From Aerosakkonema sp. BLCC-F183 (GTDB lineage Bacteria; Cyanobacteriota; Cyanobacteriia; Cyanobacteriales; Aerosakkonemataceae), in the NCBI RefSeq assembly GCF_041929145.1, contig NZ_JBHFNU010000005.1, positions 1 to 20,867 on the forward strand: a stretch of 20,867 nucleotides of DNA, in the 5' to 3' direction. Under the pieces are notes generated by a model. That model ran no database searches. It saw only the letters and a program-made list of their open reading frames with translations, and was not told the DNA's origin. Below are positions 1,399-20,867 of the stretch, in pieces. The position numbers were made by a program, and so were the translations under genes. Every line of letters begins with the position of its first letter. The stretch's first letter is position 1.

Positions 1399-1638
1399 AT
1401 GTTAGGTTTCGATCGAATTACATTCAATCCGCGCATCATGGCAGGGCAAGCTTGTATTCGAGGAATGCGAGTTCCGGTTTCATTGATTTTGAATTTGGTG
1501 GCGAATGGAAAAACTGTAGCAGAGATTATAGAAGATTATCCATACTTGGAACCGGAAGATATTCAGCAATCATTGATGTATGCGGCATGGTTAGCCCGCG
1601 AGCAGGTTTTTCCCACAGTCTATGAGAAAGTAGGATGA
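1399..1638 (+). CDS. DUF433-family small protein, putative antitoxin partner
   Basis: The 79-aa product ...RIMAGQACIRGMRVPVSLILNLVANGKTVAEIIEDYPYLEPEDIQ matches the conserved DUF433 core. It overlaps the next gene by 4 nt (ATGA). Confidence 0.7.
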   Translation: MLGFDRITFNPRIMAGQACIRGMRVPVSLILNLVANGKTVAEIIEDYPYLEPEDIQQSLMYAAWLAREQVFPTVYEKVG

Positions 1639-1997
1639 AATTTTTAGCGGATATGGGTATATCACCGCGCACAGTCAATTGGCTAAGATCTGTTGGCTAC
1701 GATGCACTACATTTAGTTGACGAAGGTTTGGCAGAATTACCCGATGATGAAATTCTGACAAAGGCTCGTGCTGAAGGACGGATACTCCTAACGGTAGATT
1801 TAGATTTTGGTTATCTGTTAGCGGTCAGTGGGGAACAATTGCCGAGTGTAATTCTGTTTCGGCTGGGTAATGAGAGTTATGAAATAATTAATGAACGTTT
1901 GGCACAGGTGCTGAATAGATTTGAGGAGGATTTGGCAGCAGGAGCAATTATTTCTGTTAAGGATGAAGCTTTCCGGGTGAGGCGATTGCCAATATAA
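1635..1997 (+). CDS. DUF5615-family (PIN-like/Mut7-C-like) protein, putative toxin partner of DUF433
   Basis: The 120-aa product MKFLADMGISPRTVNWLRSVGYDALHL...ILLTVDLDFG fits the DUF5615 pattern. It is translationally coupled to the upstream DUF433 gene. Confidence 0.7.
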   Translation: MKFLADMGISPRTVNWLRSVGYDALHLVDEGLAELPDDEILTKARAEGRILLTVDLDFGYLLAVSGEQLPSVILFRLGNESYEIINERLAQVLNRFEEDLAAGAIISVKDEAFRVRRLPI

Positions 1998-7356: not shown

Positions 7357-7566
7357 ATGACATCACAACCATTAGAGTTAGAGGGAACCTGGGAAGAAAT
7401 TGTTGCCCAATCAGAAAAACTGACCGGACGTCGCGTTCGCGTTATTGTTCTTGCTGAAGAAGAGTTGAAGTCCGCAGAAGAAAGTTTTCGGCAGGGATGG
7501 TATGAAGCCATGACAGGGCAAACAATACCTCTTTCGGAATTATGGGAAGGGATTGATGCCGAATAA
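7357..7566 (+). CDS. Small protein, putative antitoxin partner of the downstream RelE/ParE-like toxin
   Basis: The 69-aa acidic product overlaps the toxin gene start by 14 nt. I recognise no family signature, so the assignment rests on context only. Confidence 0.4.
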   Translation: MTSQPLELEGTWEEIVAQSEKLTGRRVRVIVLAEEELKSAEESFRQGWYEAMTGQTIPLSELWEGIDAE

Positions 7567-7981
7567 TCTTCCTTCAATAGAAGTTAAACCAACGCTTGAG
7601 TTTAAGAGTGACTTACGCGCCCTATCCAAAAAGTACCGCCATATTAAATCTGATATTCAGCCAGTTATTGAACGACTACAAACTGGGGAATTACTTGGGG
7701 ATCGGATACCTGGGATAGGTTATGAGGTATTTAAGGCGCGAGTCAGAAACAGCGATATCAAAAAGGGTAAAAGCGGTGGCTATAGACTGATATACTATAT
7801 TCAAAACCGCACAAGCATCATTTTGATCAGTATTTATTCAAAATCTGAGCAATCCGATATTGCCGCAGAGAAAATTCGACGGATCGTGACTGAGTTTAAT
7901 GAGCTTAGTCTCGGCGGAGACTTCAGTCAAGATCGAGAAGAAATGCAAGATGAGAATAATGGCGATCGTCCCAGCGATTAA
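7553..7981 (+). CDS. RelE/ParE-family type II toxin (addiction-module killer-like)
   Basis: The 142-aa product ...IEVKPTLEFKSDLRALSKKYRHIKSDIQPVIERLQTGELLGDRIPGIGYEVFKARVRNSDIKKGKSGGYRLIYYIQNRTSIILISIYSKSEQSDI follows the RelE/ParE layout of a helical N-terminus, then G-YRLIY, then a beta-strand ending in Y-K-S/E. It overlaps the upstream small ORF. Confidence 0.65.
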   Translation: MMPNNLPSIEVKPTLEFKSDLRALSKKYRHIKSDIQPVIERLQTGELLGDRIPGIGYEVFKARVRNSDIKKGKSGGYRLIYYIQNRTSIILISIYSKSEQSDIAAEKIRRIVTEFNELSLGGDFSQDREEMQDENNGDRPSD

Positions 7982-8046: not shown

Positions 8047-9819
8047 TCACAAGATATCCTCTGCAAACTTTCCGAGATTTTCCTGTCTCCACTTAGCATC
8101 TGCCTTCCGATTTGTTCTCAATTCTAATACCCGAATTCCTTGTTCTGGCAGAGGATTCAATCTTTGTTTCAGTTGCTGCCAAGAAGCGATCGCTTCATAT
8201 TCGACATTGTAGGTAGCACAAAGCTGAGCGAAATCTATATCCTGGGGTGTGGCAAAAAATTCTTCAAATGGCGGCTCAAATTTGGCAATTGGCAACATTT
8301 CAAATATACCACCACCATTGTTATTAATCAAGATAATAGTGAGATGTCCGAGAAATTTATTTCTCAATAAAAAGCCGTTGGTATCGTGCAACAAAGCTAA
8401 ATCTCCAGTCAGCATGACGCTGCTTTGATGGCGATGGGCAATGCCTAAAGCGGTGGATAAAGTGCCGTCGATGCCATTAGCGCCCCGGTTGAAAAAGGGT
8501 TGAATTCCAGAATTGTTCGGTGTCCAGAAAAATTCCACATCTCGCACGGGCATACTGTTGGCAATAAATATAGGCGTTGCTGGTGGTAAAGACTGGGAAA
8601 GTAACCAAGCAACTTTACATTCAAATAAGGTTTCTGTTGTTGCCATTGTGCGGTCAATGCGTTGCCTGACAGTGGCTTCGGCATCGCACCAAATTTGCAG
8701 ATATTTACTGAGATTATTTGGTTCGATCGCACATATTTGCGCTAGCTGTTCTACGGATAATCGCAGATGAGTTGTGTTGCCGTGTAGCGGATCTAAATTG
8801 TGATGGCTGGTGTCAATTACCCATGTGAGCGGTTGGGTTGATTCTAACCAAGTTCGCAGTTCTTTACTGGTGGGTAAGTCTCCTATCTGGATGGCGATTT
8901 CCGGTTTAAGTTGTTGTGCTATTTGTTGGTTTCTTAATATCGAATCGTAGGTGGAAATTAAGTAAGGATTTAGTTCGGCATAATTTCGCAATGGCGATAA
9001 TCCCTCTGCTAATACAGGCCATTTTAAGGTTTGGGAAAGTTGGGCAATTGCCTGACAATATTGTTTGGGAAAGTGAGGTTGTGACGTGCCGGCGATGATG
9101 ATTCCATGCTCGCATTGCGACCAGTTTTGTAACGTATTGAGTAAAGAATTATTGTTGGCTATTGACAACTGACAACTGACAACTGACGACTGACAACTAG
9201 CAAAGAAATGTTCTGGCTGAAATTGCGATCGCAACTCCTCGGTAGCCGCTTGGGGTATGGGGGCGAGAGGGTCGCGAAAGGGGATGTTAAGATGGATTGG
9301 GCCGGGAACGGGAAAGAGCGATCGCTCCCACCCATGAATAATTGTTTGCCGCAGATAATTCAGCATTCCTATTTCTAATGATGGCACTGCTAACTCGGCT
9401 TGCCAGTTCGGATAAGTGCCATATAATTTGATTTGGTCGATAGTTTGTCCGGAATGACAATCTCGCAATTCTGGGGGGCGATCGGCTGTGAAAACTAACA
9501 GCGGTACGCGACTTTCTCTGGCTTCAATAATAGCAGGATAAAAGTTTGCGCCCGCAGTTCCGGAAGTGCAAACTAATGCTACTGGCAAACCTGATTTTTT
9601 GGCAATTCCCAAAGCAAAAAAAGCAGCCGATCGCTCGTCCAAAACGGGAATTGCTTCTATTTTATCTTGTTGGGCAAAAGCAACTGCCAAAGCAGTAGAA
9701 CGCGACCCCGGACAGATAACTGCTGTAGTTAGTCCGAGTCGTTTTAAGGTTTCCGTAAGTATGGAAGCCCAGACAGAATTAGTGTTGCGAAAATCTATGG
9801 GCATTGGGGATTGGGTCAT
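8047..9819 (-). CDS. menD: 2-succinyl-5-enolpyruvyl-6-hydroxy-3-cyclohexene-1-carboxylate (SEPHCHC) synthase, MenD, ThDP-dependent
   Basis: The 590-aa product has the N-terminus ...SVWASILTETLKRLGLTTAVICPGSRSTALAVAFA typical of MenD. ThDP-fold motifs GDLALLHD and NNNGGGIF are present. It abuts menF with start and stop adjacent at 9819/9820. Confidence 0.9.
   Translation of the reverse strand: MTQSPMPIDFRNTNSVWASILTETLKRLGLTTAVICPGSRSTALAVAFAQQDKIEAIPVLDERSAAFFALGIAKKSGLPVALVCTSGTAGANFYPAIIEARESRVPLLVFTADRPPELRDCHSGQTIDQIKLYGTYPNWQAELAVPSLEIGMLNYLRQTIIHGWERSLFPVPGPIHLNIPFRDPLAPIPQAATEELRSQFQPEHFFASCQSSVVSCQLSIANNNSLLNTLQNWSQCEHGIIIAGTSQPHFPKQYCQAIAQLSQTLKWPVLAEGLSPLRNYAELNPYLISTYDSILRNQQIAQQLKPEIAIQIGDLPTSKELRTWLESTQPLTWVIDTSHHNLDPLHGNTTHLRLSVEQLAQICAIEPNNLSKYLQIWCDAEATVRQRIDRTMATTETLFECKVAWLLSQSLPPATPIFIANSMPVRDVEFFWTPNNSGIQPFFNRGANGIDGTLSTALGIAHRHQSSVMLTGDLALLHDTNGFLLRNKFLGHLTIILINNNGGGIFEMLPIAKFEPPFEEFFATPQDIDFAQLCATYNVEYEAIASWQQLKQRLNPLPEQGIRVLELRTNRKADAKWRQENLGKFAEDIL
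9163..9197. repeat. (TGACAAC)5 heptamer tandem repeat lying inside the menD coding sequence
   Basis: tgacaac tgacaac tgacaac tgacgac tgacaac is read on the minus strand as the low-complexity peptide ASCQSSVVSCQLS within MenD. Confidence 0.85.
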
Positions 9820-11247
9820 TCACACTAAAGCTTTGAGAAGTGCTTGAAGTTTCAGTTGAATTTCTGCAAGTTCTTTGTCTGGATCTGAGCCAGCAACGAT
9901 ACCGGCACCTGCGTACAGTCTAGCGCGATCGCTATCTATCAGTGCTGAACGAATGCCTACGACAAACTCGCTGTTACCGCGATGATCTATCCAACCTAAT
10001 GGTGCCGCATAAACAGAGCGATCGAATGCTTCATAGCGGCGAATTTGGCTCAGCGCGATATCTCTAGGATCGCCTGCAACAGCAGGGGTGGGATGGAGTT
10101 CTGCCAAAATTTGTAATGGCTGCACACCGCCAGCGATTTTACCTCGAATTGGTGTCCATAAATGTTGTATATTTGATAGCTGTAAAAGACCGGGAATAGG
10201 AAGTCGCTGGTGTGACAAACCGAGGTTGGATAAGCGCTCGACAATGAAATCAATTACAACTCGATGTTCCCGCCTTTCCTTTTCGCTCCTGAGCAAACGT
10301 TCAGCAAAATAGGCATCTTCGGCTGCTGTTTTGCCTCGCGGTGCTGACCCCGCCAAAGCATCGGTTTCTAATTCTCGCTCTTGTATCCTAATTAAGCGCT
10401 CTGGACTGGCACCGATAAAATCTTTACCTTTGCCGTTACTGGTAGAAAAAACATAGCAATCGGGATACATTCTTCGCAAATTATTTAAGGAATCAACCCG
10501 ACGAAAAGGGCGCGGCGAATTAACCTCAATTGCGTGAGCTAAGACAATTTTGCTAAAATGTTTAGACCGAATCGATTGCAATGCCGATACGACTGAGGCT
10601 TGAAAATTTCTGCGATCGGTTACATCTTGCGGTTGAAATTTCTGTTTATAATCGCTCAAATGAAAATTTCTGTAGTTCGCGAATCTAATTTGGTGGAGTT
10701 TCTGCCATATATTCTCTGCTATAACTTCGATGTTTGCATTGCTGTCGATTACAGTATTAGCCACTATAACACAGTAATCTTTTTGACAGGAAACCTGCCA
10801 GCGAGGTAAAAAAACTGTGGCGGCGGGGAAAGGAGAATCACCATTGATATTCTCATCAAAAAATGTGAAAGTACAGAAAAAGTGAGGCCCAGAAAAAGGC
10901 AGGTCTAACGCGCCTGTGGCAATTGTGTTAGCAAGGCATGAATCGATAAATTTTTGTGCTTGCGAAAAGCGATCGACTCCTTCTAACTTAAATTTAGCGG
11001 CTGTATCGATCGCCGCGATCGCTTCCCCTTGATTGGCTTTTTCCCAATAAAAATGCAGTTTTTCCGGCTCGGCAATGCGATCGAGTACAGCTAGCGGATC
11101 GAGCGGTTTACTTGGCAGGGAAATACTGACAACTTTTTGCAGCCCTTTTTCAATTAACGTTTGTTTGCAAGCTAAAAGAAACTGATGCAGTTCCTTGCGA
11201 TCTTCAAACAGATTAGGATGATGTGTCACTGGCACGGAAGCGAACAT
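9820..11247 (-). CDS. menF: Isochorismate synthase MenF (chorismate-binding enzyme family)
   Basis: The 475-aa product has a chorismate-utilising C-terminus with PTPAVAG and YAGAGIVAGSDPDKELAEI motifs. It lies immediately upstream of and co-oriented with menD. Confidence 0.85.
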   Translation of the reverse strand: MFASVPVTHHPNLFEDRKELHQFLLACKQTLIEKGLQKVVSISLPSKPLDPLAVLDRIAEPEKLHFYWEKANQGEAIAAIDTAAKFKLEGVDRFSQAQKFIDSCLANTIATGALDLPFSGPHFFCTFTFFDENINGDSPFPAATVFLPRWQVSCQKDYCVIVANTVIDSNANIEVIAENIWQKLHQIRFANYRNFHLSDYKQKFQPQDVTDRRNFQASVVSALQSIRSKHFSKIVLAHAIEVNSPRPFRRVDSLNNLRRMYPDCYVFSTSNGKGKDFIGASPERLIRIQERELETDALAGSAPRGKTAAEDAYFAERLLRSEKERREHRVVIDFIVERLSNLGLSHQRLPIPGLLQLSNIQHLWTPIRGKIAGGVQPLQILAELHPTPAVAGDPRDIALSQIRRYEAFDRSVYAAPLGWIDHRGNSEFVVGIRSALIDSDRARLYAGAGIVAGSDPDKELAEIQLKLQALLKALV

Positions 11248-11400
11248 AGCAAATTTTTTTAACGTTTGCTTGCCAAATTTTCAATTATGAGCATGGTAGG
11301 GCTAGAGTTAGCACACTCCCACTCCATCTAACCACTTCTGGCGTTCCGTTGTACCAGGCTAGTAGTCCACCAAATTGATTTTAATGGGTTGTCGTCGGCC

Positions 11401-11433
11401 AGAAACCCGGTGTTTTAGAAAAACCGGGTTTCT
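11401..11433. promoter_or_regulatory. 33-bp near-perfect palindrome AGAAACCCGGTgTTTTagAAAAaCCGGGTTTCT in the divergent menF/menA intergenic region
   Basis: The 11-bp arms AGAAACCCGGT and ACCGGGTTTCT are exact reverse complements. The central gttttagaaaa is itself nearly palindromic. No U-tract follows on either strand, so it does not look like a terminator. Confidence 0.45.
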
Positions 11434-11460
11434 CAAACTGCCGATTCTGCGGGCGAAACA

Positions 11461-11506
11461 GCCCCGTTGTGGGGAATGGCGCGACTCGAAGCGGGGCCAC
11501 AACGGG
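11461..11506. promoter_or_regulatory. GC-rich region with mutually exclusive alternative hairpins (10-bp stem CCCGTTGTGG/CCACAACGGG versus 6-bp GCCCCG/CGGGGC)
   Basis: 11463-11472 pairs with 11497-11506 as a perfect 10-bp stem. 11461-11466 pairs with 11492-11497 as an alternative 6-bp stem. 11462-11474 ccccgttgtgggg can also fold on itself. Confidence 0.35.
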
Positions 11507-11655
11507 TCAAAAGGTTTGAAATCCCTGCTTGGTGGTAGCGACACTGGCAACGTCCCCAGCAAAGATTGTGGCCTGCGTTATCCAGATTGAGTTTACCATT
11601 GCGACCTCAGCATCATAAAATTATGAGATTCGGAAAATTCAATCGATACCGTCCG

Positions 11656-12561
11656 ATGACTACACAATCTATTGCTCATTCAAACAGTAAGTTGTGGTTG
11701 GCAGCACTTAAACCACCGATGTACAGCGTTGCCGTGATTCCAATTTGGGTGGGAACTGCTGTTGCTTGCGCGGAAAATAACACTTTTAATGGCGCAATCT
11801 TTTCGACATTTTTAATTTCAGCGATTTTGATTGTTGCGTGGCTGAATCTCAGCAACGATGTGTTCGATTCGGAAACTGGAATTGATAAAAACAAAGCGCA
11901 TTCGCTCGTTAATTTAACAGGAAATAAACCCTTAATTTTCTGGTTGGCGAATTTGTTTTTAGCTGTGGGTATTCTGGGAGTAGTGGCGATCGCATGGTGG
12001 CAACAAGACCTCACTGTAATCGGTCTGATACTGCTCTGCTGTGCTATGGGCTACACTTACCAAGGGCCGCCCTTTCGGTTGGGATATCAGGGTTTGGGGG
12101 AAATTATTTGCTTTTTTACCTTTGGGCCATTGGGCGGATCGGCGGCGTACTACAGCCAAACCCAAAGCTGGTCGATCGCCAATATAGCAGCTTCTGCGAT
12201 CGTCGGCATCGTCACCAGCTTGATTTTGTTTTGCTCCCATTTTCATCAACTTGAAGACGACCTAGCGGCAGGGAAGAAATCGCCCATTGTCCGACTCGGC
12301 ACTGCCAAAGCATCCCAGCTATTACCTTGGTTTGGCGGCAGCATTTACCCTTTGACTGTGCTGTTCGTCGCATTGCACATTTTTCCAGTTTGGACATTGC
12401 TAATCTTTGTCAGTTTACCCCTCGCCCTCAAGTTATTCCGACACGTTGGCGAAAATCACGATCGACCGGAAAAAGTCAGCAATTGTAAATTTATCGCCGT
12501 AGCCCTGCATTTTTGGAGTGGCTTACTGTTAGGATTGGGATTCGTACTTGCCAACATTTGA
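11656..12561 (+). CDS. menA: 1,4-dihydroxy-2-naphthoate phytyltransferase MenA (UbiA prenyltransferase family)
   Basis: The product is a polytopic membrane protein with the MenA-type first motif NDVFDSETGID (NDxxDxxxGxD) and a second Asp-rich motif near EDDLAAGKKS. It is followed by menC and menE. The ORF is open from 11566 and ATG 11623 is also possible. ATG 11656 (MTTQS...) gives a length typical of MenA. The stop TGA at 12559-12561 overlaps the menC ATG. Confidence 0.8.
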   Translation: MTTQSIAHSNSKLWLAALKPPMYSVAVIPIWVGTAVACAENNTFNGAIFSTFLISAILIVAWLNLSNDVFDSETGIDKNKAHSLVNLTGNKPLIFWLANLFLAVGILGVVAIAWWQQDLTVIGLILLCCAMGYTYQGPPFRLGYQGLGEIICFFTFGPLGGSAAYYSQTQSWSIANIAASAIVGIVTSLILFCSHFHQLEDDLAAGKKSPIVRLGTAKASQLLPWFGGSIYPLTVLFVALHIFPVWTLLIFVSLPLALKLFRHVGENHDRPEKVSNCKFIAVALHFWSGLLLGLGFVLANI

Positions 12562-13553
12562 TGTTTTATCAGTTTGAATTTCGTCCTTATCAGCGACAGT
12601 TTAAACGCGCCCTCTCCACCAGTCACGGCAACTGGGATATTCGAGAGGGCATTATCCTGCGCCTCACCGACGATAAAGGTGTAATTGCTTGGGGAGAAAT
12701 TGCCCCTATTCCCTGGTTTGGTTCCGAAACATTGCCATCAGCTATAAATTTTTGTAGTCAATTGGGAGATGAAATAACAACAGAAACAATTTTCTCTATT
12801 CCATCTGAATTACCATCATGTCAATTTGGTTTTGAATCTGCTTGGGAAACATCTCTTGTGAGGCAGGCATCGACGCTGCCACTAAGACCGGACAGGCAAG
12901 ATGCCTATCCCACAAGAAAGTATTCTTACAGTTGCTTATTACCAGCAGGCGAAGCCGCTTTACATCAATGGCAAACACTTTGGCAGCAAGGATATCGTAC
13001 TTTCAAATGGAAAATTAATGTTACTCCCATTGAAGATGAAATCAAAATTTTTGCCAAGCTAATTCAGGCACTACCGAGGTCGGCAAAACTGCGATTAGAT
13101 GCTAATGCTGGACTGAATTGGTCAGAAGCAAATGAATGGCTGAAAATGTGCGAGAATTACTCTGCGATCGAATTCCTCGAACAACCCCTACCCGTCGAGC
13201 AATTTCATGCCATGCTAGATTTAGCTAACCGCTATTCTACCCCAATAGCATTAGATGAATCCGTTGCCACCCTTAACCAACTGCAAACCTGTTACGAAGA
13301 AGGTTGGCGAAGTATTTTTGTCATCAAACCCGGCATCGTTGGTTCCCCCAGACTTCTGCGTCAATTTTGTCAGCAACATGACATCGATGTCGTCTTTTCA
13401 TCGGTTTTTGAAACAGCCATTGGCAGACAAGCTGCACTTAACCTCGCAGCTGAACTTTCTCATCATAATCGAGCAGTTGGTTTTGGCGTCAATCACTGGT
13501 TTAATGAAGATGAGGAAACGTGGCTTGAAAATTTATGGAACAACCCCCATTAG
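12561..13553 (+). CDS. menC: o-Succinylbenzoate synthase MenC (enolase superfamily)
   Basis: The product has the KxK motif FKWKI, metal-ligand motifs RLDANAG, EFLEQP and ALDES, and an N-terminus MFYQFEFRPYQRQFKRALSTSHG...GEIAPIPWFGSET typical of cyanobacterial OSBS. The start ATG 12561 overlaps the menA stop as TGATG. Confidence 0.85.
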   Translation: MFYQFEFRPYQRQFKRALSTSHGNWDIREGIILRLTDDKGVIAWGEIAPIPWFGSETLPSAINFCSQLGDEITTETIFSIPSELPSCQFGFESAWETSLVRQASTLPLRPDRQDAYPTRKYSYSCLLPAGEAALHQWQTLWQQGYRTFKWKINVTPIEDEIKIFAKLIQALPRSAKLRLDANAGLNWSEANEWLKMCENYSAIEFLEQPLPVEQFHAMLDLANRYSTPIALDESVATLNQLQTCYEEGWRSIFVIKPGIVGSPRLLRQFCQQHDIDVVFSSVFETAIGRQAALNLAAELSHHNRAVGFGVNHWFNEDEETWLENLWNNPH

Positions 13554-14950
13554 ATCTTGTGGGGCTGGTGTCTCACCTGCCCAATAATTGGTTAATTGGT
13601 TACAACACCCATCAATTTACTCAGCTTGTCGAACAACTATATTTAGAATTAATCCAAATATCCAAACAGCAAAACTCACCAAAAATTATCTTAGCCGAAC
13701 GAAATCCAGTGCGCTTTTTAGCCGGTTTCATCGCTGCAACAGCCGCCGGTTGCCCCGTATTTCTCTGCAATCCCGATTGGGTAAAAGCTGAATGGCAACA
13801 AGTTTTTGAATTAGTTCAACCAGACATAATTTGGGGAAATTTGTCAGTCGTCAGTTGCCAGTTGTTCGCTGCAAAGAAAGAGGAAAAAAAAGCTGATTAC
13901 AGACAGATTATGATTCCCACGGGTGGTTCGTCGGGTGAAATTCGCTTTGCCATCCACACTTGGGAAACATTGACAGCATCGGTGCAAGGTTTTATCGAAT
14001 ATTTCGATATAAAGACAGTCAATTCCTTTTGCGTCTTGCCGCTTTATCATGTCAGCGGTTTGATGCAATTTGTGCGCTCATTCCTCACTGGTGGAAAACT
14101 GGCAATTCTACCTTTTAAAGCACTAGAAGCTGGTGAAAAATGCGAAGTCGAACCAGCAGATTTTTTCATATCTTTAGTGCCAACTCAACTGCAACGTCTG
14201 TTAGATCGTACTCCACAATGGTTGTCTCAGTTTCAAACAATTCTGTTAGGAGGTGCTACAGCTTGGCACGAACTTCTAGAACAAGCGAGACAGCATGAAA
14301 TTCGGTTAGCACTCACTTACGGGATGACAGAAACTGCCTCGCAAATTGTCACCCTCAAACCAGAAGATTTTCTCAAGGGGAATAATAGCTGCGGACAAGT
14401 TTTACCTCATGCAAAGGTAAAAATTTGCAATCCAAATGGGAAGATGTTAGGTGCGAATCAAACGGGAATTATCACCATCAATGCAGATTCATTAGCGCTA
14501 GGTTATTATCCTGATACTTCATTTGTTAGAGAAAAGCAGGTAATTTTACAAGCGGATGATTTGGGATTTTTTGACGAACAAGGTTACTTAAACATTGTCG
14601 GACGTAACAGCAATAAAATCATCACTGGCGGCGAAAATGTTTTTCCATCGGAAGTGGAAGCGGCGATTCGATCGACTAATCTAGTTAGCGATATCTGCGT
14701 CATTGGCATACCCGATTCCCATTGGGGTCAAGCGGTGACGGCTGTGTACGTTCCCAGCCATCCAGAAGTTGACACCGAGACGCTGCAAACCGCACTTTTA
14801 GATAAATTAAGTAACTTCAAGCGCCCCAAATATTGGATACCTGTAGAAAGTTTGCCGCGTAACGCGCAGGGTAAAATTAATCGCGAACAAATACAACAAA
14901 TAGCTATTTCGTGGCATCCAGATCGCTCCAATCTTGCAGCCAGTCAATAA
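13535..14950 (+). CDS. menE: o-Succinylbenzoate-CoA ligase MenE (adenylate-forming enzyme)
   Basis: The 471-aa product has AMP-binding motifs [15 protein letters not shown] and [11 protein letters not shown] and a conserved Lys near the C-terminus. It overlaps the menC 3' end by 19 nt. Confidence 0.85.
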
Positions 14951-15329
14951 TGTCTGTGGGTAATTCTTTTCTACTTCTACTCGTAGGATCGATGCAGGCG
15001 TGTCTGGTCATTGCCTTTGCTAGCTGCTGCTGCTTAGTATCAAAAATTTGATACTCAATTTCAAACTTATTGCTAGTTAAACTTTTCGGAAACAAGTAAA
15101 TAATTATCTTGTCGCCACAGAACATCGGGCGGAGGAAATCAACGCTAGCATGGATGATGGGAATGGCAACTCCTGAGTTAGTACTGAAAAACGATCGAAT
15201 ATTAATCCCAGATGCTACCAGGGATTCTTCGTAGGCTTCGTGACACATTGGCAAAACATTGGCGAAATAAACGACGCCTGCTGCATCGGTATCTTGAAAG
15301 CGAATTGTCCGAGTATAAGAAAAAGGCAT
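14904..15329 (-). CDS. Hotdog-fold (4HBT/YbgC-like) acyl-CoA thioesterase, probable 1,4-dihydroxy-2-naphthoyl-CoA hydrolase of the phylloquinone pathway
   Basis: The 141-aa product has the N-terminus [26 protein letters not shown] typical of 4HBT-class thioesterases. Cyanobacteria use a hotdog thioesterase (Synechocystis Slr0204 type) for DHNA-CoA hydrolysis, and this gene sits in the men cluster convergent with menE. Confidence 0.65.
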
Positions 15330-15395: not shown

Positions 15396-16079
15396 ATGAC
15401 TACCGCCACTCCTACAGATATCCAAACAGTCCTCGCCACAGCTTTACCCCAGTGGAAACCAGCTACTTGGTCAGACTACTTAGCTTGTCGCGATGCAGAA
15501 ACCCCAGAGAGAGTCAGGTTGTTTTTTAATCGGGATAGACTTTTAATTGATATGGGTTCAGAAGGAATCAATCACGCCAGTGTTAGCGACCTGTTCATCA
15601 TGCTGTTTGGCTTCTGGTTCGCTCGCTTTACACAACAAATAGCGGCTTCTTTTGGACGTTGTTTGCTGGAGAAGCCGAACACACAAGCAGCAGCGCCAGA
15701 TTTAGTATTGTACATCGGTGAGGGAGTTCCGCAATGGCAACAAGGCGAACTGCGTCGAATAGATTTAAATAGGTGGCGAGTACCAGATTTGGTGGGTGAA
15801 ATAGCTGACACAACTATAGCGACTGACTTGGATGAAAAGAAAAAACTTTATGCGGATTTGGGAATTCCAGAATACTGGGTGGTTAATATTCGAGGTAGAC
15901 AGGTTATCGCATTTCGGCTAGAGGAAAATGGTAAATATCAACAGTGTAGCGAGTCTGTCGTACTTGCTGGTTTGCCTATTTCTTTGCTAGAGCAAACTTT
16001 GGAACGTCTGAGCGAAGGAACTAATATTACCGCCGCTGTGTGGTTTTCTCAACAGATTGCTAATTTGAAAGCTGAATGA
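15396..16079 (+). CDS. Uma2-family (DUF820) putative restriction-endonuclease-like protein
   Basis: The product ...PDLVGEIADTTIATDLDEKKKLYADLGIPEYWVVNIRGRQVIAF carries the PD-(D/E)xK-like core of Uma2 proteins. I chose ATG 15396 (MTTATP...) because the longer 15240 start would overlap the divergent thioesterase gene. Confidence 0.8.
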   Translation: MTTATPTDIQTVLATALPQWKPATWSDYLACRDAETPERVRLFFNRDRLLIDMGSEGINHASVSDLFIMLFGFWFARFTQQIAASFGRCLLEKPNTQAAAPDLVLYIGEGVPQWQQGELRRIDLNRWRVPDLVGEIADTTIATDLDEKKKLYADLGIPEYWVVNIRGRQVIAFRLEENGKYQQCSESVVLAGLPISLLEQTLERLSEGTNITAAVWFSQQIANLKAE

Positions 16080-16297
16080 AGAAAATTATTTGCGGGTTTG
16101 TGTGGTTTCTTAGCTTCATGTTTGGATTTTATGAGGCGTCTGTGTTTTTAATAGAGGCCAACACGAACGAAGAATTTTTGAAAGATAACGTAGAAACAGT
16201 TTCTATTTTACTTTGTGCTTCTGCTCTGGGTTCGTCTGTAATAGCTATTGCAGGTACAATGGCGGGAATATTACCAGGTACAAGCTCAAAAAAATAA
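16076..16297 (+). CDS. Small hypothetical membrane protein with two predicted TM helices
   Basis: The 73-aa ORF overlaps the Uma2 stop as ATGA. Two hydrophobic stretches are present, ICGFVWFLSFMFGFY and ILLCASALGSSVIAIAGTMAGIL. No family is recognised. Confidence 0.35.
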   Translation: MKKIICGFVWFLSFMFGFYEASVFLIEANTNEEFLKDNVETVSILLCASALGSSVIAIAGTMAGILPGTSSKK

Positions 16298-16563
16298 GTA
16301 ATGATGATAGCTAACCTAGATAATAAGCATTTTTGAGAGTGGGTTTTTATATCGTGTCCGGTTGCATCGGTAGTATATGAGCGAAGCGAAACGTTCTCTG
16401 TGGGAATTGGGGGTGAAAATTTTACCGCAGATGTAGGCAGATTAACGCAGATAAACGCAGATAAGAACGCTATTTTTTTATGCAACCGATGCTACCAAAC
16501 ATCATATTAGATCCTCGCTGGGTGGGAGCGATCGCAACTCATTTTCATGGCATTAACTCATAA

Positions 16564-16589
16564 CTGTAGGGTGCTAATACACACCCTAC
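16564..16589. terminator. Perfect 9-bp stem hairpin TGTAGGGTG-ctaataca-CACCCTACA, candidate terminator about 60 nt beyond the TerB-like gene
   Basis: The inverted repeat is exact. The flanks are moderately T-rich on the plus side and there is only a weak U-run on the minus side. Confidence 0.35.
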
Positions 16590-16646
16590 ATTAGTTTAAT
16601 CAAAAATTGCCAGCCTGGATGACCGTGCAGTTTGCTGAATAAACTT

Positions 16647-17093
16647 CTAACCTTTGTTTTTTATCAGCATGACATCTATAATTTTGACAGCAGTCTCTTC
16701 AGTTATTTCTAAAGCGCGATAGAGATCGTTCAAAAGTTTTTCTTCTTCTTCGGTGACTTCGCCATCTGCCAAAACGATATCAGTTGCTACAGCAAAAGCT
16801 GTGTCTTTCAGTTCATCCGGAAGCGTAGACATTGCTGCATTAAACAGGGTTTCTGGGCCTTCCCTTTGCAAAATACCCAGGAGTCGATCGATCATTTTTC
16901 TCATTACGTCACCCGGATAGCTCCTAAACAGTTGCATCCGAGATAAAATAGTGCTAATGGCTTGCGCTTCCGAATCGGTAACGTAGCCGTCTGCCGCTAC
17001 TGCAATCAATGCGATCGCCGCAAATGCTTCCGCTGGCCCTAGCGTTGTTTGGGTTTGCTTGCGACCGCCCGCTATTTTATCGAACAAGCCCAT
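16647..17093 (-). CDS. TerB-like (tellurite-resistance TerB family) small protein
   Basis: The 148-aa helical product has two ADG-x-V/T-x-E acidic motifs, ...AVAADGYVTDSEAQ... and ...IVLADGEVTEEEEKLL, characteristic of TerB-domain proteins. A GAGGAAA ribosome-binding site lies 7 nt upstream. Confidence 0.55.
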   Translation of the reverse strand: MGLFDKIAGGRKQTQTTLGPAEAFAAIALIAVAADGYVTDSEAQAISTILSRMQLFRSYPGDVMRKMIDRLLGILQREGPETLFNAAMSTLPDELKDTAFAVATDIVLADGEVTEEEEKLLNDLYRALEITEETAVKIIDVMLIKNKG

Positions 17094-17183
17094 TGTATTT
17101 TCCTCTTTCTGGTACTACGATCTCACTATTAGTAGCACATTTATCTCTATCACGTTATCAAAAAAAATTAATTTAATCTAAAA

Positions 17184-18506
17184 TTATCTATCCAAAGTTG
17201 CCAATTCTCCCTTCAGATAGTCAACAAATTGTCGAGCCGTTCTACCGGATCGTCCGTTGTGACGAGTTGCCCACTGGAGAGCGCGGTACTCCAAATTTTC
17301 TATAGGAAGAGTAATTCCAGCTTGCTCTGCCAAATGGCGCACAATTGTTAAATAAGTTTTTTGATCCGCAGGTTCAAAAGTGAGAGTAAGACCAAAGCGA
17401 TCGCTAAACGAAAGCTTCTCCTGCACTGTATCCCAAGCATGAACTTCCTCATCGCTGGGAGTAGGTCGATCTTTAAAAAATTCGCGAATCAAATGACGCC
17501 GATTGGAAGTAGCATAAACTACCACATTTTGAGGTCGAGCAGTTATATTCCCTTCCAGGACAACTTTAAGAGCCTTGAAAGCATCGTCATCTTCTTCAAA
17601 CGATAGATCATCTACAAAAATGATAAACTTCTGCGGTACGTTCCGCAACAGTTCGACAATTTTTGATAAATCTTTCAAGTCAGATTTTGACACTTCGATG
17701 AGGCGGAGATTGCGATTGGCATACTCATTCAATAACCCCTTCACCAAAGAAGATTTTCCCGAACCGCGACTGCCGTAAAGCAACACATGAAGCGCTGGAT
17801 AACCTAACAATAAAAACTCGGTATTTTTCATCAAAGCATCTCGCTGAGACTCATACCCCGCCAGTTCCTTGATTTTGATGGGATCGGGGTGTGCAATGCC
17901 GAGCAACTGACCGGACTGCCAGCGCAATGCTTGATATTCAGACAAAATACCCGTACCGCACTCCCGGTAATAAGCGGCCAAATCTTCGACAGCATCTGCC
18001 CAATTATCCAGTTCTTGCAGAGAAGCGATCGCTTTTTTTTCTGCATCGGATAGATAGCTGATTTCATCTTGTTCTCGATACCAAACCACAGGTGCCAGCG
18101 GCAGTTTCGATGCTTCTTGTACCCAGCAACTAAGTTCCCCACCGTTGCATTCGTAAAGACTTTGCAATGCTTGTAAATCTTGCTGAACTGCTGCTACTAA
18201 AGCCGATGGTAAACTTGCGAAATCTTGCCGTTGCGCTTGCTGCGTAAACGGGTTATCGTTTCTGAGAATTTGCCAAATTAAATAATCCTGCCAACTTTTA
18301 TTTGTGGCGGCTATCGCTTGGAACCACTTGCCATAAGCTTGCAAGTAAATCAGCCCTTCCGCATCCCAGCGTTTCAAAGCATCGAGTAGTTCCAGGAAAG
18401 CTATACCCGGTGGGTCGCTTAAAACCGATCGGTACAGCAACAACGACGCCGCTTGGCGTTGAAGGAATTGGATAGAGGAGAGATCTACTGTATCAAGAGA
18501 AGACAT
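17184..18506 (-). CDS. DUF815-family P-loop ATPase (COG2607-like) with an N-terminal extension of about 230 aa of unknown function
   Basis: The product has the Walker A motif GSRGSGKSS and the Walker B motif FIIFVDDLSFEEDD. The block ...LRLIEVSKSDLKDL...VYATSNRRHLI matches the conserved DUF815 core. Confidence 0.7.
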   Translation of the reverse strand: MSSLDTVDLSSIQFLQRQAASLLLYRSVLSDPPGIAFLELLDALKRWDAEGLIYLQAYGKWFQAIAATNKSWQDYLIWQILRNDNPFTQQAQRQDFASLPSALVAAVQQDLQALQSLYECNGGELSCWVQEASKLPLAPVVWYREQDEISYLSDAEKKAIASLQELDNWADAVEDLAAYYRECGTGILSEYQALRWQSGQLLGIAHPDPIKIKELAGYESQRDALMKNTEFLLLGYPALHVLLYGSRGSGKSSLVKGLLNEYANRNLRLIEVSKSDLKDLSKIVELLRNVPQKFIIFVDDLSFEEDDDAFKALKVVLEGNITARPQNVVVYATSNRRHLIREFFKDRPTPSDEEVHAWDTVQEKLSFSDRFGLTLTFEPADQKTYLTIVRHLAEQAGITLPIENLEYRALQWATRHNGRSGRTARQFVDYLKGELATLDR

Positions 18507-18940
18507 GAGCTACAAAAGTCAATCATTCAAAAGTCACCGACTTGTGGGTTGAGTTAAAAATATTACCGCCGCACGAGCATTCGTTAAAAAGTCAAAAGTC
18601 TCAAATGCTTTGAGCATCAGGGAAGCGAAAACGAACTACTGAAACTAACAAGTTGGGTTCGCCTGGGGTAAGGCCGCACCTACATTGCCAGCTATCGCCC
18701 CTAATTTATAATATTTTAAGATGGCCTCAACTGGGGGATTTGCCTAATATTTTAAAGCAATTAGGGATACTCGCGGTATATCTCTGAGAATGTGTTTCAA
18801 AATTTAAGCTACTTTAAACACTAGAAGAATAGACATCTCCTCCAAAAGAATCTCAAAGGGCAGGCAGGATGGCTACCCCACAAGAATTTTTGGAGATGTT
18901 TAATGGAAAATAGTCAGTTTTTACTCAAGCTACGTAAATT

Positions 18941-20867
18941 ATGCGATCGCTCCTCCCACTCCACCGACTGAAAATCCCCCTGCGACTCATCCTTGTCGTC
19001 CCCTTCGTGCTGCTGGTGGCGATCTCCGTAGGACTGACCAACTATTTTTCACTTCAGAATAGCCGCTTACAAGTGCAGCAACTGGCACACCAGTTGATGA
19101 TGGAAGTTGCCGATCGCGTCCATCTATACCTAGATCACTACCTAGAACAACCTGACCAGATCGATCGCAGCAACACTAACGCGGTACGTTTCGGCCAACT
19201 CGACCCCCAGAACATCAATGCTATAGAACGCTATCTGATTTGGCAAATCTCCAATTTCGATCACATTCAAAGTATTGTATACGCCAACGAACAGGGAGAT
19301 TTGAGAATCGTTAAATCCATCAAAGGTAAACGGACACTTCAGATAACAAACAGCCCCGATGTTAGAAAATTTGAACAGTACGCCATTAACTCAAACGGTC
19401 AGCCATCTAAATTTATTAAAATGGGACAATATCCACAAACTTGGGATATTCGACAGCAGCACTGGTATAAATTAGCCAAACAAAAAAAGAGAAAAATCTG
19501 GAATTCAGTCTACACATTAGGTGATGGCACAGACCTGAATATTAACGCCAGTTTACCAGTTTATGATGTCAATAAAAAATTCATAGGAGTCTTTGAATTA
19601 AATTTAAATTTGAGCGGGTTAAATGATTTTATTAACCAATTGCAACTGCGGAATACAGGTGTTGTTTTCCTGATGGAAAACAATGGCTCTCTCATTACCA
19701 GTTCGACAGATGAATTACCTTTTATTAAAACCAGCGATGGTAAATTTAAGCGAATTTTGGCAACTCAAAGTCAGAATCCCCTAATTCAAGCAGCCAGTCG
19801 TCATCTCACATCACAGTTTAATTTGAACGAGATCGATCGCCTTCAGCAGAGGGAATTTACCGAGAACGGGAAAACCTATTTCTCCCAAGTACAACCATAC
19901 AAAGATAAGTATGGCTTGAATTGGACGATCGTGACAGTTGTACCGAAGTCTGACTTCATGGCCAAGATCGATATTAATACTCAATATACTATTCGGCTGA
20001 CGGTATTGGCAGCGATAATAACGATCCTCCTGGGTATCCTAATTGCCAACCGGATTGCCCGTCCCATTCTCACCCTCAGCAAAACTTCAGCAGCAATTGC
20101 ACAAGGCAATCTAAATGTACAAATTCCCGAACATTTGCCAGTGCGGGAACTCGATCGTATGGCGCGTTCTTTTAACCAGATGACGCAGCAATTGCAGTCA
20201 GGTTTCGATCGCATCCAAACAAATTTGCGCGAATCAGAAGCAAAATTGAGCGATATTATTAACAGCCCGATCGCATCAATTATCCAGCTGCGAATCTTCG
20301 CCAATGGAGATTGGAATATTGAGTATCTTTCCCGTGGCTGCGAAACTGTATTTGGTTATAACCCGCAAGAATTTTTAGACGATAAATCCATCTGGATGTC
20401 GAGAATAGTGCCAGAAGATCTGGAAACTATAATTCTTCCTTTATTTAATGACGTTTTTGCCGAAAAAACTGTCAGTTTCGAGTATAGATTCAACCGCAAA
20501 GACGGGAGCTTGCGCTGGTTAGGAGCCAGATTGACCTCTAGATACGATCGAGAAGGCAATTGCTGGTTTGTCAATCAGTTCACCATTGATATTAGCGATC
20601 GCAAAACCTTAGAACGAGAACTTGCCTTCCGAGAAGCCCAACTGAATGTATTATTTAATTCTGCACCGCTCGGCATAAATATTATTGATGACCGATTGCG
20701 GTTTGTCAAAGTGAACGAATCTATGGCAGAAATTAATGGTGTACCCATATCAGAGCATATCGGTAAAACAATAGGCGATATTTTACCTCGACTAGCTCCT
20801 ATTGTCGAACCGATTTACCAACAAGTTCTTACCACAGGTCAGCCGATTTTGAATTTAGAAGTGAGTG
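18941..20867 (+). CDS. Multisensor signalling protein (TM, dCache_1, TM, HAMP, at least two PAS/PAC domains), 3'-truncated by the window end. It is absent from the ORF track because no stop is reached.
   Basis: The frame stays open from ATG 18941 to the window end, about 642 codons. TM1 is LILVVPFVLLVAISVGL. The periplasmic region has a Cache-like core ...VYDVNKKFIGVFELNLNLSGLNDFI...GVVFLMENNGSLITSS. TM2 is LTVLAAIITILLGILIA. HAMP is ...AAIAQGNLNVQIPEHLPVRELDRMARSFNQMTQQLQ. A PAS/PAC follows, ...RKDGSLRWL..., then a second PAS, ...LFNSAPLGINIIDDRLRFVKVNESMAEINGV. Confidence 0.8.
   Translation, partial: MRSLLPLHRLKIPLRLILVVPFVLLVAISVGLTNYFSLQNSRLQVQQLAHQLMMEVADRVHLYLDHYLEQPDQIDRSNTNAVRFGQLDPQNINAIERYLIWQISNFDHIQSIVYANEQGDLRIVKSIKGKRTLQITNSPDVRKFEQYAINSNGQPSKFIKMGQYPQTWDIRQQHWYKLAKQKKRKIWNSVYTLGDGTDLNINASLPVYDVNKKFIGVFELNLNLSGLNDFINQLQLRNTGVVFLMENNGSLITSSTDELPFIKTSDGKFKRILATQSQNPLIQAASRHLTSQFNLNEIDRLQQREFTENGKTYFSQVQPYKDKYGLNWTIVTVVPKSDFMAKIDINTQYTIRLTVLAAIITILLGILIANRIARPILTLSKTSAAIAQGNLNVQIPEHLPVRELDRMARSFNQMTQQLQSGFDRIQTNLRESEAKLSDIINSPIASIIQLRIFANGDWNIEYLSRGCETVFGYNPQEFLDDKSIWMSRIVPEDLETIILPLFNDVFAEKTVSFEYRFNRKDGSLRWLGARLTSRYDREGNCWFVNQFTIDISDRKTLERELAFREAQLNVLFNSAPLGINIIDDRLRFVKVNESMAEINGVPISEHIGKTIGDILPRLAPIVEPIYQQVLTTGQPILNLEVS

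Follow-up and report, generated by a model that had tools for sequence, protein, structure and literature searches.

A DUF815 ATPase gene and a TerB-family gene side by side in Aerosakkonema sp. BLCC-F183, compared with the SepT gene block and the Shango system

TerB domains are found in Shango, Bunzi and Dionysus, three defence systems that have been validated. Shango, an anti-phage system, combines the TerB-domain protein SngA with the ATPase SngB and the helicase SngC (Millman et al. 2022; Johnson et al. 2022). The common theme, a Ter-family protein beside a P-loop ATPase, is also found in Aerosakkonema sp. BLCC-F183, where a small TerB-family gene lies downstream of a DUF815 AAA+ ATPase gene on the same strand. 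Both lie in a stretch of 20,867 nucleotides, hereafter the window (contig NZ_JBHFNU010000005.1, positions 1 to 20,867). The initial annotation, made from the sequence alone, had offered the pair as a candidate novel stress or defence module. This proposal was borne out only in part. Both domain calls stand and the adjacency recurs in related genomes, but neither the ATPase nor the TerB protein matches any PADLOC model, both genes are core and vertically inherited, the ATPase has plant orthologues, and the surroundings are of a housekeeping type. Because the genes are core and conserved and their neighbours (phylloquinone, or men, genes and a sensor kinase) are housekeeping genes, the locus lacks the patchy distribution, variable context and known defence neighbours of a mobile defence island, and the case for a new mobile defence system is not supported. 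We favour, at a probability of about 55%, the reading that these are two ancient core genes whose adjacency is a lineage-level feature, which are possibly co-transcribed, and which do not constitute an autonomous or mobile defence module.

The closest described cyanobacterial locus is that of Anabaena sp. PCC 7120, in which all2461-all2460-all2459 form a conserved synteny block whose flanking genes are called 'P-loop NTPases' (Velazquez-Suarez, Springstein et al., mBio 2023, PMC10653889). [quoted passage not shown] In Synechocystis, slr0930 is annotated as DUF815, and its 49 kDa product was co-immunoprecipitated with YlxR/RnpM (PMC11622646); from its size and DUF815 annotation we infer that it belongs to the same family as the window ATPase. 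These two papers were the only literature found on DUF815, slr0930 or all2461, and no description of an ATPase-TerB pairing was found in the searchable literature, in keeping with the initial view that the pairing had not been described.

The two open reading frames are co-oriented and 90 base pairs (bp) apart, exactly where they had first been placed, and are laid out as follows.

17184-18506, minus strand: DUF815 AAA+ ATPase gene, 440 amino acids (open reading frame and Pfam)
17937-18506, minus strand: N-terminal domain of the ATPase, amino acids 1-190, an 11-helix bundle (AlphaFold2 and conservation)
17751-17774, minus strand: Walker A motif, G245-S-R-G-S-G-K-S252, invariant in 50 orthologues
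17595-17618, minus strand: Walker B motif and acidic run, F297-V-D-D-L-S-F-E304, then EDDD, invariant in 50 orthologues
17367-17489, minus strand: insert in the DUF815 module, amino acids 340-380, REFF..DRP..WDT.QEKLSFSDRFGLTLTFE, nearly invariant, with an AlphaFold2 predicted local distance difference test (pLDDT) score below 50
17094-17183, minus strand: spacer between the ATPase and TerB genes, 90 bp
16647-17093, minus strand: TerB-family gene, 148 amino acids (open reading frame and Pfam)

The assignment of the ATPase to DUF815 is upheld by a Pfam match (PF05673) over the whole domain, at amino acids 190-434 and profile positions 2-248 of 249 (E-value 4.7e-99; 331 bits against a cut-off of 23.8), beside which only weaker generic AAA matches occur. 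The DD pair at 299-300, T333/N335, R336/R337 and R419/R422/R425 are also invariant among the 50 orthologues. Judged by its motifs (Walker A and B, sensor-1 N335, R336/R337 and a sensor-2 arginine cluster), the ATPase appears to be catalytically intact. It thus has the same full-length domain and intact nucleotide-binding motifs as other Pfam DUF815/COG2607 ATPases, but adds a 190-residue N-terminal domain. This extension had been described as 230 amino acids without recognisable motifs, which is a fair approximation, as about 190 residues precede the DUF815 boundary and about 240 the P-loop, and the Pfam, NCBIfam and PADLOC searches of the N-terminal part gave no match. Its residues are conserved across orthologues and AlphaFold2 folds the region confidently as an all-alpha bundle (pLDDT 85), which argues that it is a real domain; it belongs to no known family or fold and is limited to cyanobacteria and streptophytes. 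AlphaFold2 is also confident in the AAA+ core, and the insert at amino acids 340-380 may be a DUF815-specific element that depends on a partner or on oligomer formation. A Foldseek comparison of the full ATPase model with the PDB returned generic AAA+ matches (RuvB, PAN, Msp1, DnaA/Hda). Among solved folds, RuvB, classic-clade AAA and DnaA/Hda come nearest, none of them close, and a sequence search of solved structures matched the ATPase to generic AAA proteins only (BCS1, Vps4).

Full-length orthologues of the ATPase have 430-470 amino acids and are 65-98% identical across cyanobacteria, with values of 65-79% across Oscillatoriales-type, Nostocales, Chroococcidiopsidales and Coleofasciculaceae genomes and of about 65-70% between orders. 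When the N-terminal domain was used in a HMMER scan of 1.84 billion representative proteins, only 178 clusters were found at an E-value of 1e-3 or below. Nine of ten sampled matches also carry DUF815, and four of those with a source name are from streptophytes (Spirogloea, Chara, Marchantia and Selaginella). Such broad vertical conservation together with plant orthologues is typical of an ancient, vertically inherited housekeeping gene of the cyanobacterial/plastid lineage, and so the ATPase is read here as one, unlike mobile defence genes. Most of the streptophyte proteins that combine the N-terminal domain with DUF815 (P0445, P0452, P0455, P0467/P0564) have an N-terminal extension, which could be a transit peptide. 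For AT1G73170, considered as a possible Arabidopsis orthologue, the literature gave only a Lon-protease listing, and no conclusion here depends on it.

The relation to Anabaena can be traced through published primers. The RFGLTL motif, which is invariant and present in the window ATPase, is encoded by primer all2461-1, and this primer maps exactly inside the orthologous ATPase reading frame, at about amino acid 359 (locus L046). In homologous loci, primer all2460-2 falls within the SepT-like reading frame and primer all2459-1 within the SngB-like one. The window ATPase is 68-70% identical to the Nostocales proteins encoded directly upstream of SepT-like genes, and the 442 amino acids of All2459 equal the median length of the BrxC_BrxD ATPases encoded downstream of the ATPase (cluster 2). 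These findings identify the window ATPase as the orthologue of Anabaena All2461.

Domains, orthology and synteny statistics were observed directly, the last of these from the ATPase side in the best 80 of 563 loci, a sample that is skewed to Nostocales and in which TerB-adjacent clades are under-represented; the bias was offset by a TerB-side scan of metagenome contigs (80 loci, from a TerB alignment). In 69 of the 80 ATPase loci, the next gene downstream on the same strand, at a median gap of 117 bp, encodes a protein of about 445 amino acids with two transmembrane helices, a long coiled coil and a Pfam TerB_C domain. This protein is SepT (All2460) of Anabaena PCC 7120. The third gene of the cluster encodes a BrxC_BrxD-family ATPase of about 442 amino acids. 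The dominant conserved partners of the DUF815 ATPase are therefore SepT and All2459, not TerB. PADLOC calls the SepT-like protein SngA, in its C-terminal half only (64-67 bits), and the All2459-like protein SngB, over its full length (589-597 bits); a full-length SngC helicase (837 bits) comes next in 9 of 60 informative loci, as well as in L168 and L170. By these profile matches, the published all2461-sepT-all2459 block appears Shango-like (L007, L077, L168, L170 and the 69 loci), and in other cyanobacteria orthologues of the window ATPase directly precede genes resembling SngB, SngC and the C-terminal half of SngA.

The window pair itself differs from Shango in several respects. Its ATPase is of the DUF815 family and has no SngB or BrxD match in PADLOC, its TerB protein has no SngA match at an E-value of 0.1 or below, and both genes are core, vertically inherited and outside variable hotspots. 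Searches of the window with tblastn gave a best E-value of 4.2 for cyanobacterial SngB and 2.3 for the SngC helicase. Relative to the all2461-sepT-all2459 block, the window ATPase shares both orthology and the architecture of N-terminal domain plus DUF815, but no SepT-like or All2459-like gene occurs within the 20.9 kb, and the small TerB gene occupies the downstream position.

The TerB call also stands, with a Pfam TerB (PF05099) match above the gathering score (32.5 bits against 24.4) that spans amino acids 22-135 and profile positions 2-113 of 118, and with motifs that are invariant in orthologues. NCBI sources label the protein 'tellurite resistance TerB family protein'. Its orthologues have a fixed length of 147-150 amino acids, are 66-93% identical, and keep M-x-L-F-D unchanged at the N-terminus (MGLFDK in the window protein). 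Two acidic DG motifs, D35-G36..E42 and D110-G111..E116-E117, are invariant in 15 orthologues. Paired acidic DG motifs in TerB-family proteins point to metal binding and membrane-peripheral behaviour, and by analogy the window TerB is suggested to be a small helical protein with putative metal binding and a membrane-peripheral location. The TerB of the classical enterobacterial terZABCDEF operon has about 151 amino acids; the window protein is of similar size, Pfam TerB covers nearly the whole of it, and its MGLFDK N-terminus appears to resemble the MSFFDK of enterobacterial TerB. Unlike the classical ter operon, however, neither the window reading frames nor the called genes of L081, a 99.5%-identical locus, include terA, terC, terD, terE or terZ. 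The window TerB had no sequence match to any solved structure, and NCBIfam and PADLOC scans gave no specific match for it or for the ATPase. The possibility that TerB148 is a detached piece of SepT/SngA was ruled out (hhalign probability 0.1%), and a 143-residue protein encoded upstream of a distant DUF815 homologue (L171) was rejected as a cryptic TerB.

Two further elements bear on how the pair may be expressed, and both had been noted from the sequence.

17101-17105, minus strand: GAGGA ribosome-binding site of TerB, 7 nucleotides before the ATG
16565-16590, between the convergent genes: hairpin with a 9-bp perfect stem and an 8-nucleotide loop, 56 nucleotides past the TerB stop codon

The GAGGA sequence also precedes TerB in many related loci. 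No terminator-like hairpin or other such element was found in the 90-bp spacer between the two genes, and a single weak promoter-like match (17204->17175) extends across the stop codon of the ATPase. In related loci the spacer ranges from 32 to 255 bp and in some contains large structured inserts; this variability argues that ATPase and TerB are not translationally coupled. The inserts, of 138-255 nucleotides in L091, L098, L103, L111 and L152, have predicted folding energies of -52 to -93 kcal/mol and are probably cyanobacterial repeats or elements like miniature inverted-repeat transposable elements. Downstream of the pair, the 97 nucleotides after the TerB stop codon have a folding energy of -34.4 kcal/mol (z = -5.1). 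The hairpin has no U-tract on TerB's own strand, and since it sits between convergent genes it may be a bidirectional terminator. A repeat scan of positions 16000-19200 returned short chance repeats only, and an Rfam scan of the window returned no match.

From the ATPase side, TerB lies within 6 kb in only three of the 80 loci, namely L001, L002 (Microseira) and L003 (Floridaenema aerugineum). Same-strand adjacency nevertheless recurs in many Oscillatoriales-type genomes and metagenome contigs, and also in Kamptonema, Microseira, Floridaenema and Argonema-like loci. The order in Kamptonema animale is Tmemb_14, ATPase and TerB, with 32 bp between the last two, and the TerB-adjacent clades keep a larger block of Tmemb_14, ATPase, TerB, 4HBT thioesterase, ApbA, menE and menC. 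Elsewhere TerB is present with no ATPase nearby, as in the Nostocales Dolichospermum/Aphanizomenon, Cylindrospermopsis and Cyanomargarita and in Planktothricoides-type Oscillatoriaceae. In Cyanomargarita calcarea the two genes are on separate contigs, the ATPase (L066) being followed by SepT-like and SngB genes and the TerB being on L128. Microseira wollei carries ATPase and TerB on one contig (L002) and SepT-like, SngB and SngC genes on another (L168). Directly upstream of this trio is an IS605-family TnpB/OrfB gene (L168:5391-6656), a position consistent with the trio having moved from beside the DUF815 gene to its present site. In Microcoleus sp. FACHB-831 the genes run kinase, ATPase, SepT-like, SngB, SngC ... 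thioesterase, menE, menC, and this locus is the window backbone with the SepT-like/SngB/SngC trio standing where the window has TerB. Neither TerB nor a SepT-type gene neighbours two deeper ATPase homologues. A Tmemb_14 gene stands divergent from the ATPase in 60 of the 80 ATPase loci (e.g., L006:5504-5824) and also at L085:6155-6487; this position is shared by loci with TerB and loci with SepT, and in the window it is taken by the sensor kinase.

A tentative picture of how these proteins might act can be drawn. The ATPase would be expected to work as an oligomeric AAA+ protein, with its N-terminal helical domain most likely docking a partner or substrate. In most cyanobacteria, where it heads the cluster encoding SepT and All2459, it could sit on the cytoplasmic side of the membrane and help to remodel or assemble the SepT/All2459 machinery. 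Lineages of the Aerosakkonema, Microcoleus and Kamptonema type would carry the SepT trio elsewhere, as is seen in Microseira; in them TerB is the downstream neighbour of the ATPase and a candidate for cross-talk with it. The pair may have a common transcript that starts in the promoter region between the ATPase and the divergent sensor kinase, used by both, and ends at the hairpin at 16565-16590, and TerB, with its own ribosome-binding site, may possibly have its own promoter as well.

Several observations weigh against the reading of two core genes joined at the level of lineages only. When adjacency is counted from the TerB side, in loci with at least 1.5 kb upstream of TerB, the ATPase lies directly upstream on the same strand in 23 of the 27 loci with a TerB of 70% identity or more to that of the window, compared with none of three at 60-70% identity and one of 31 below 60%. 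Conservation of the neighbourhood, which the initial annotation had left to be checked, thus extends to the close TerB orthologues and fails in most cyanobacteria (3 of 80 ATPase loci). On an outgroup-rooted ATPase tree, the TerB-adjacent lineages were never monophyletic (0 of 200 bootstraps). They occur at the deepest ingroup branch (L156), in a Microcoleus/Kamptonema clade with 95% support, and in the window clade, itself joined with low support to the SepT-state locus L170; the backbone is weakly supported (26-52%), and the tree is a gene tree, not a species tree. The window ATPase likewise shares more identity with the SepT-state Nostocales (68-70%) than with the TerB-state Microcoleus clade (about 65%). 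Non-monophyly means that the adjacency either is an ancestral state kept for a long time or was formed repeatedly, and either one hints at selection. In addition, a Ter-family neighbour, TerB or TerB-C, is present in both arrangements of the ATPase, which is unlikely to be a coincidence, and the ATPase-TerB adjacency is kept in L093, L156 and L003, where the downstream thioesterase is absent. Together with the gap of just 32 bp in Kamptonema, the occurrence of the same ATPase before a TerB-C protein and SngB, with or without SngC, and the TerB domains of Shango, Bunzi and Dionysus, these points would suit a two-component module in which TerB, as a membrane- or metal-sensing subunit, recruits or gates the ATPase in stress or phage defence, making the pair a minimal relative of Shango-type systems. 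We consider such a module a serious, though less probable, account. In Nostocales and some Oscillatoriaceae both genes are kept without being linked; TerB is missing at this site from Floridaenema flaviceps and Phormidium LEGE 05292, unlike in the sister F. aerugineum, in which TerB follows the ATPase; large inserts are tolerated in the spacer; no homology between TerB148 and SepT could be detected; and the blank PADLOC result, the core conservation, the plant orthologues and the housekeeping surroundings are unlike those of defence islands. Should the ATPase and TerB cooperate, the enigmatic TerB domain would gain a defined enzymatic partner in a tractable, conserved system. More speculative, and in our view doubtful, is the proposal that the All2461-type ATPase belongs, as a fourth component so far overlooked, to a Shango-like machine fixed in the chromosome (SepT as the SngA-like protein, All2459 as SngB, with or without SngC), with Ter-family proteins as interchangeable membrane-proximal partners, either stand-alone TerB (Aerosakkonema, Microcoleus, Kamptonema) or TerB-C/SepT (Nostocales). 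If it were true, the biology of septal peptidoglycan and nanopores would be connected with a phage-defence family, and TerB would acquire a concrete ATPase client whose orthologue is retained in streptophytes.

At the other extreme, the arrangement could be a pure historical accident, two independent transcription units without co-regulation that rearrangement has yet to split. The ribosome-binding site of TerB, the weak promoter-like site over the ATPase stop codon and the structured, variable spacers agree with this, as does the fact that flanking genes are likewise block-conserved within the same clade. It is nonetheless improbable, as no terminator-like element separates the two window genes and the adjacency persists at 57-66% ATPase identity, deeper than the 68-70% between the window and Nostocales, where the order differs. 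Least credible of all is a functional tie of TerB to the men genes or thylakoid biology, with the ATPase merely next door. TerB has the 4HBT thioesterase as a neighbour in 34 loci, about as often as it has the ATPase (35 loci), followed by ApbA, menE and menC, but in the window a Uma2 gene and a small open reading frame lie between TerB and the thioesterase, L093, L156 and L003 keep the pair without the thioesterase, the men genes of Nostocales are on the other side of the ATPase, and there is no biochemical rationale for such a link. Two ancient core genes with a lineage-level adjacency therefore remain our preferred reading, under which the window pair as it stands is an ordinary conserved-hypothetical neighbourhood and a modest lead. 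The likeness of the SepT block to Shango is the more notable by-product. With the orthology to All2461, it would link a septal and cytoskeletal protein of multicellular cyanobacteria to an anti-phage family, and the same link would extend to an ATPase conserved in streptophyte algae and early-diverging land plants.

The remaining features of the window are listed below. They include the Uma2 gene and the membrane sensor that had been reported on either side of the pair, and both were found there.

18941-20867, plus strand: 5' part of a hybrid sensor kinase with dCache, HAMP and PAS domains, divergent from the ATPase and running off the window end (translation)
16076-16297, plus strand: hydrophobic open reading frame of 73 amino acids, convergent with TerB and overlapping the Uma2 stop codon
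15240-16079, plus strand: Uma2-family gene, convergent with TerB (Pfam), called as 227 amino acids in relatives
14904-15329, minus strand: 4HBT thioesterase, within the men cluster (Pfam)
8047-15329: phylloquinone (men) cluster, with menD and menF on the minus strand and menA, menC and menE on the plus strand (Pfam)
7553-7981, plus strand: small toxin-like open reading frame, RelE/ParE-like
1635-1997, plus strand: small toxin-like open reading frame, DUF5615/Mut7-C PIN-like

The kinase is complete in L081, where it has 1557 amino acids. The men cluster at 8047-15329 looks complete, with menD, menF, menA, menC, menE and the 4HBT thioesterase. Genes of this pathway recur by the ATPase in many lineages, on either side, and the thioesterase and menE recur close to the ATPase or TerB in many lineages as well. 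Other neighbours in the window include TatC, peptidase and SLT genes. The two toxin-like reading frames are interspersed among housekeeping genes and, together with Uma2, are the sole genes nearby that are reminiscent of defence. Proteins of the window are about 98-99.5% identical to those of 'Planktothrix sp. FACHB-1355'/Aerosakkonema-type assemblies. The 73-residue reading frame at 16076-16297 is present in the 99.5%-identical L081 and absent from L082-L084, in which the ATPase is 97.7% identical, and its presence or absence is a strain-level indel.

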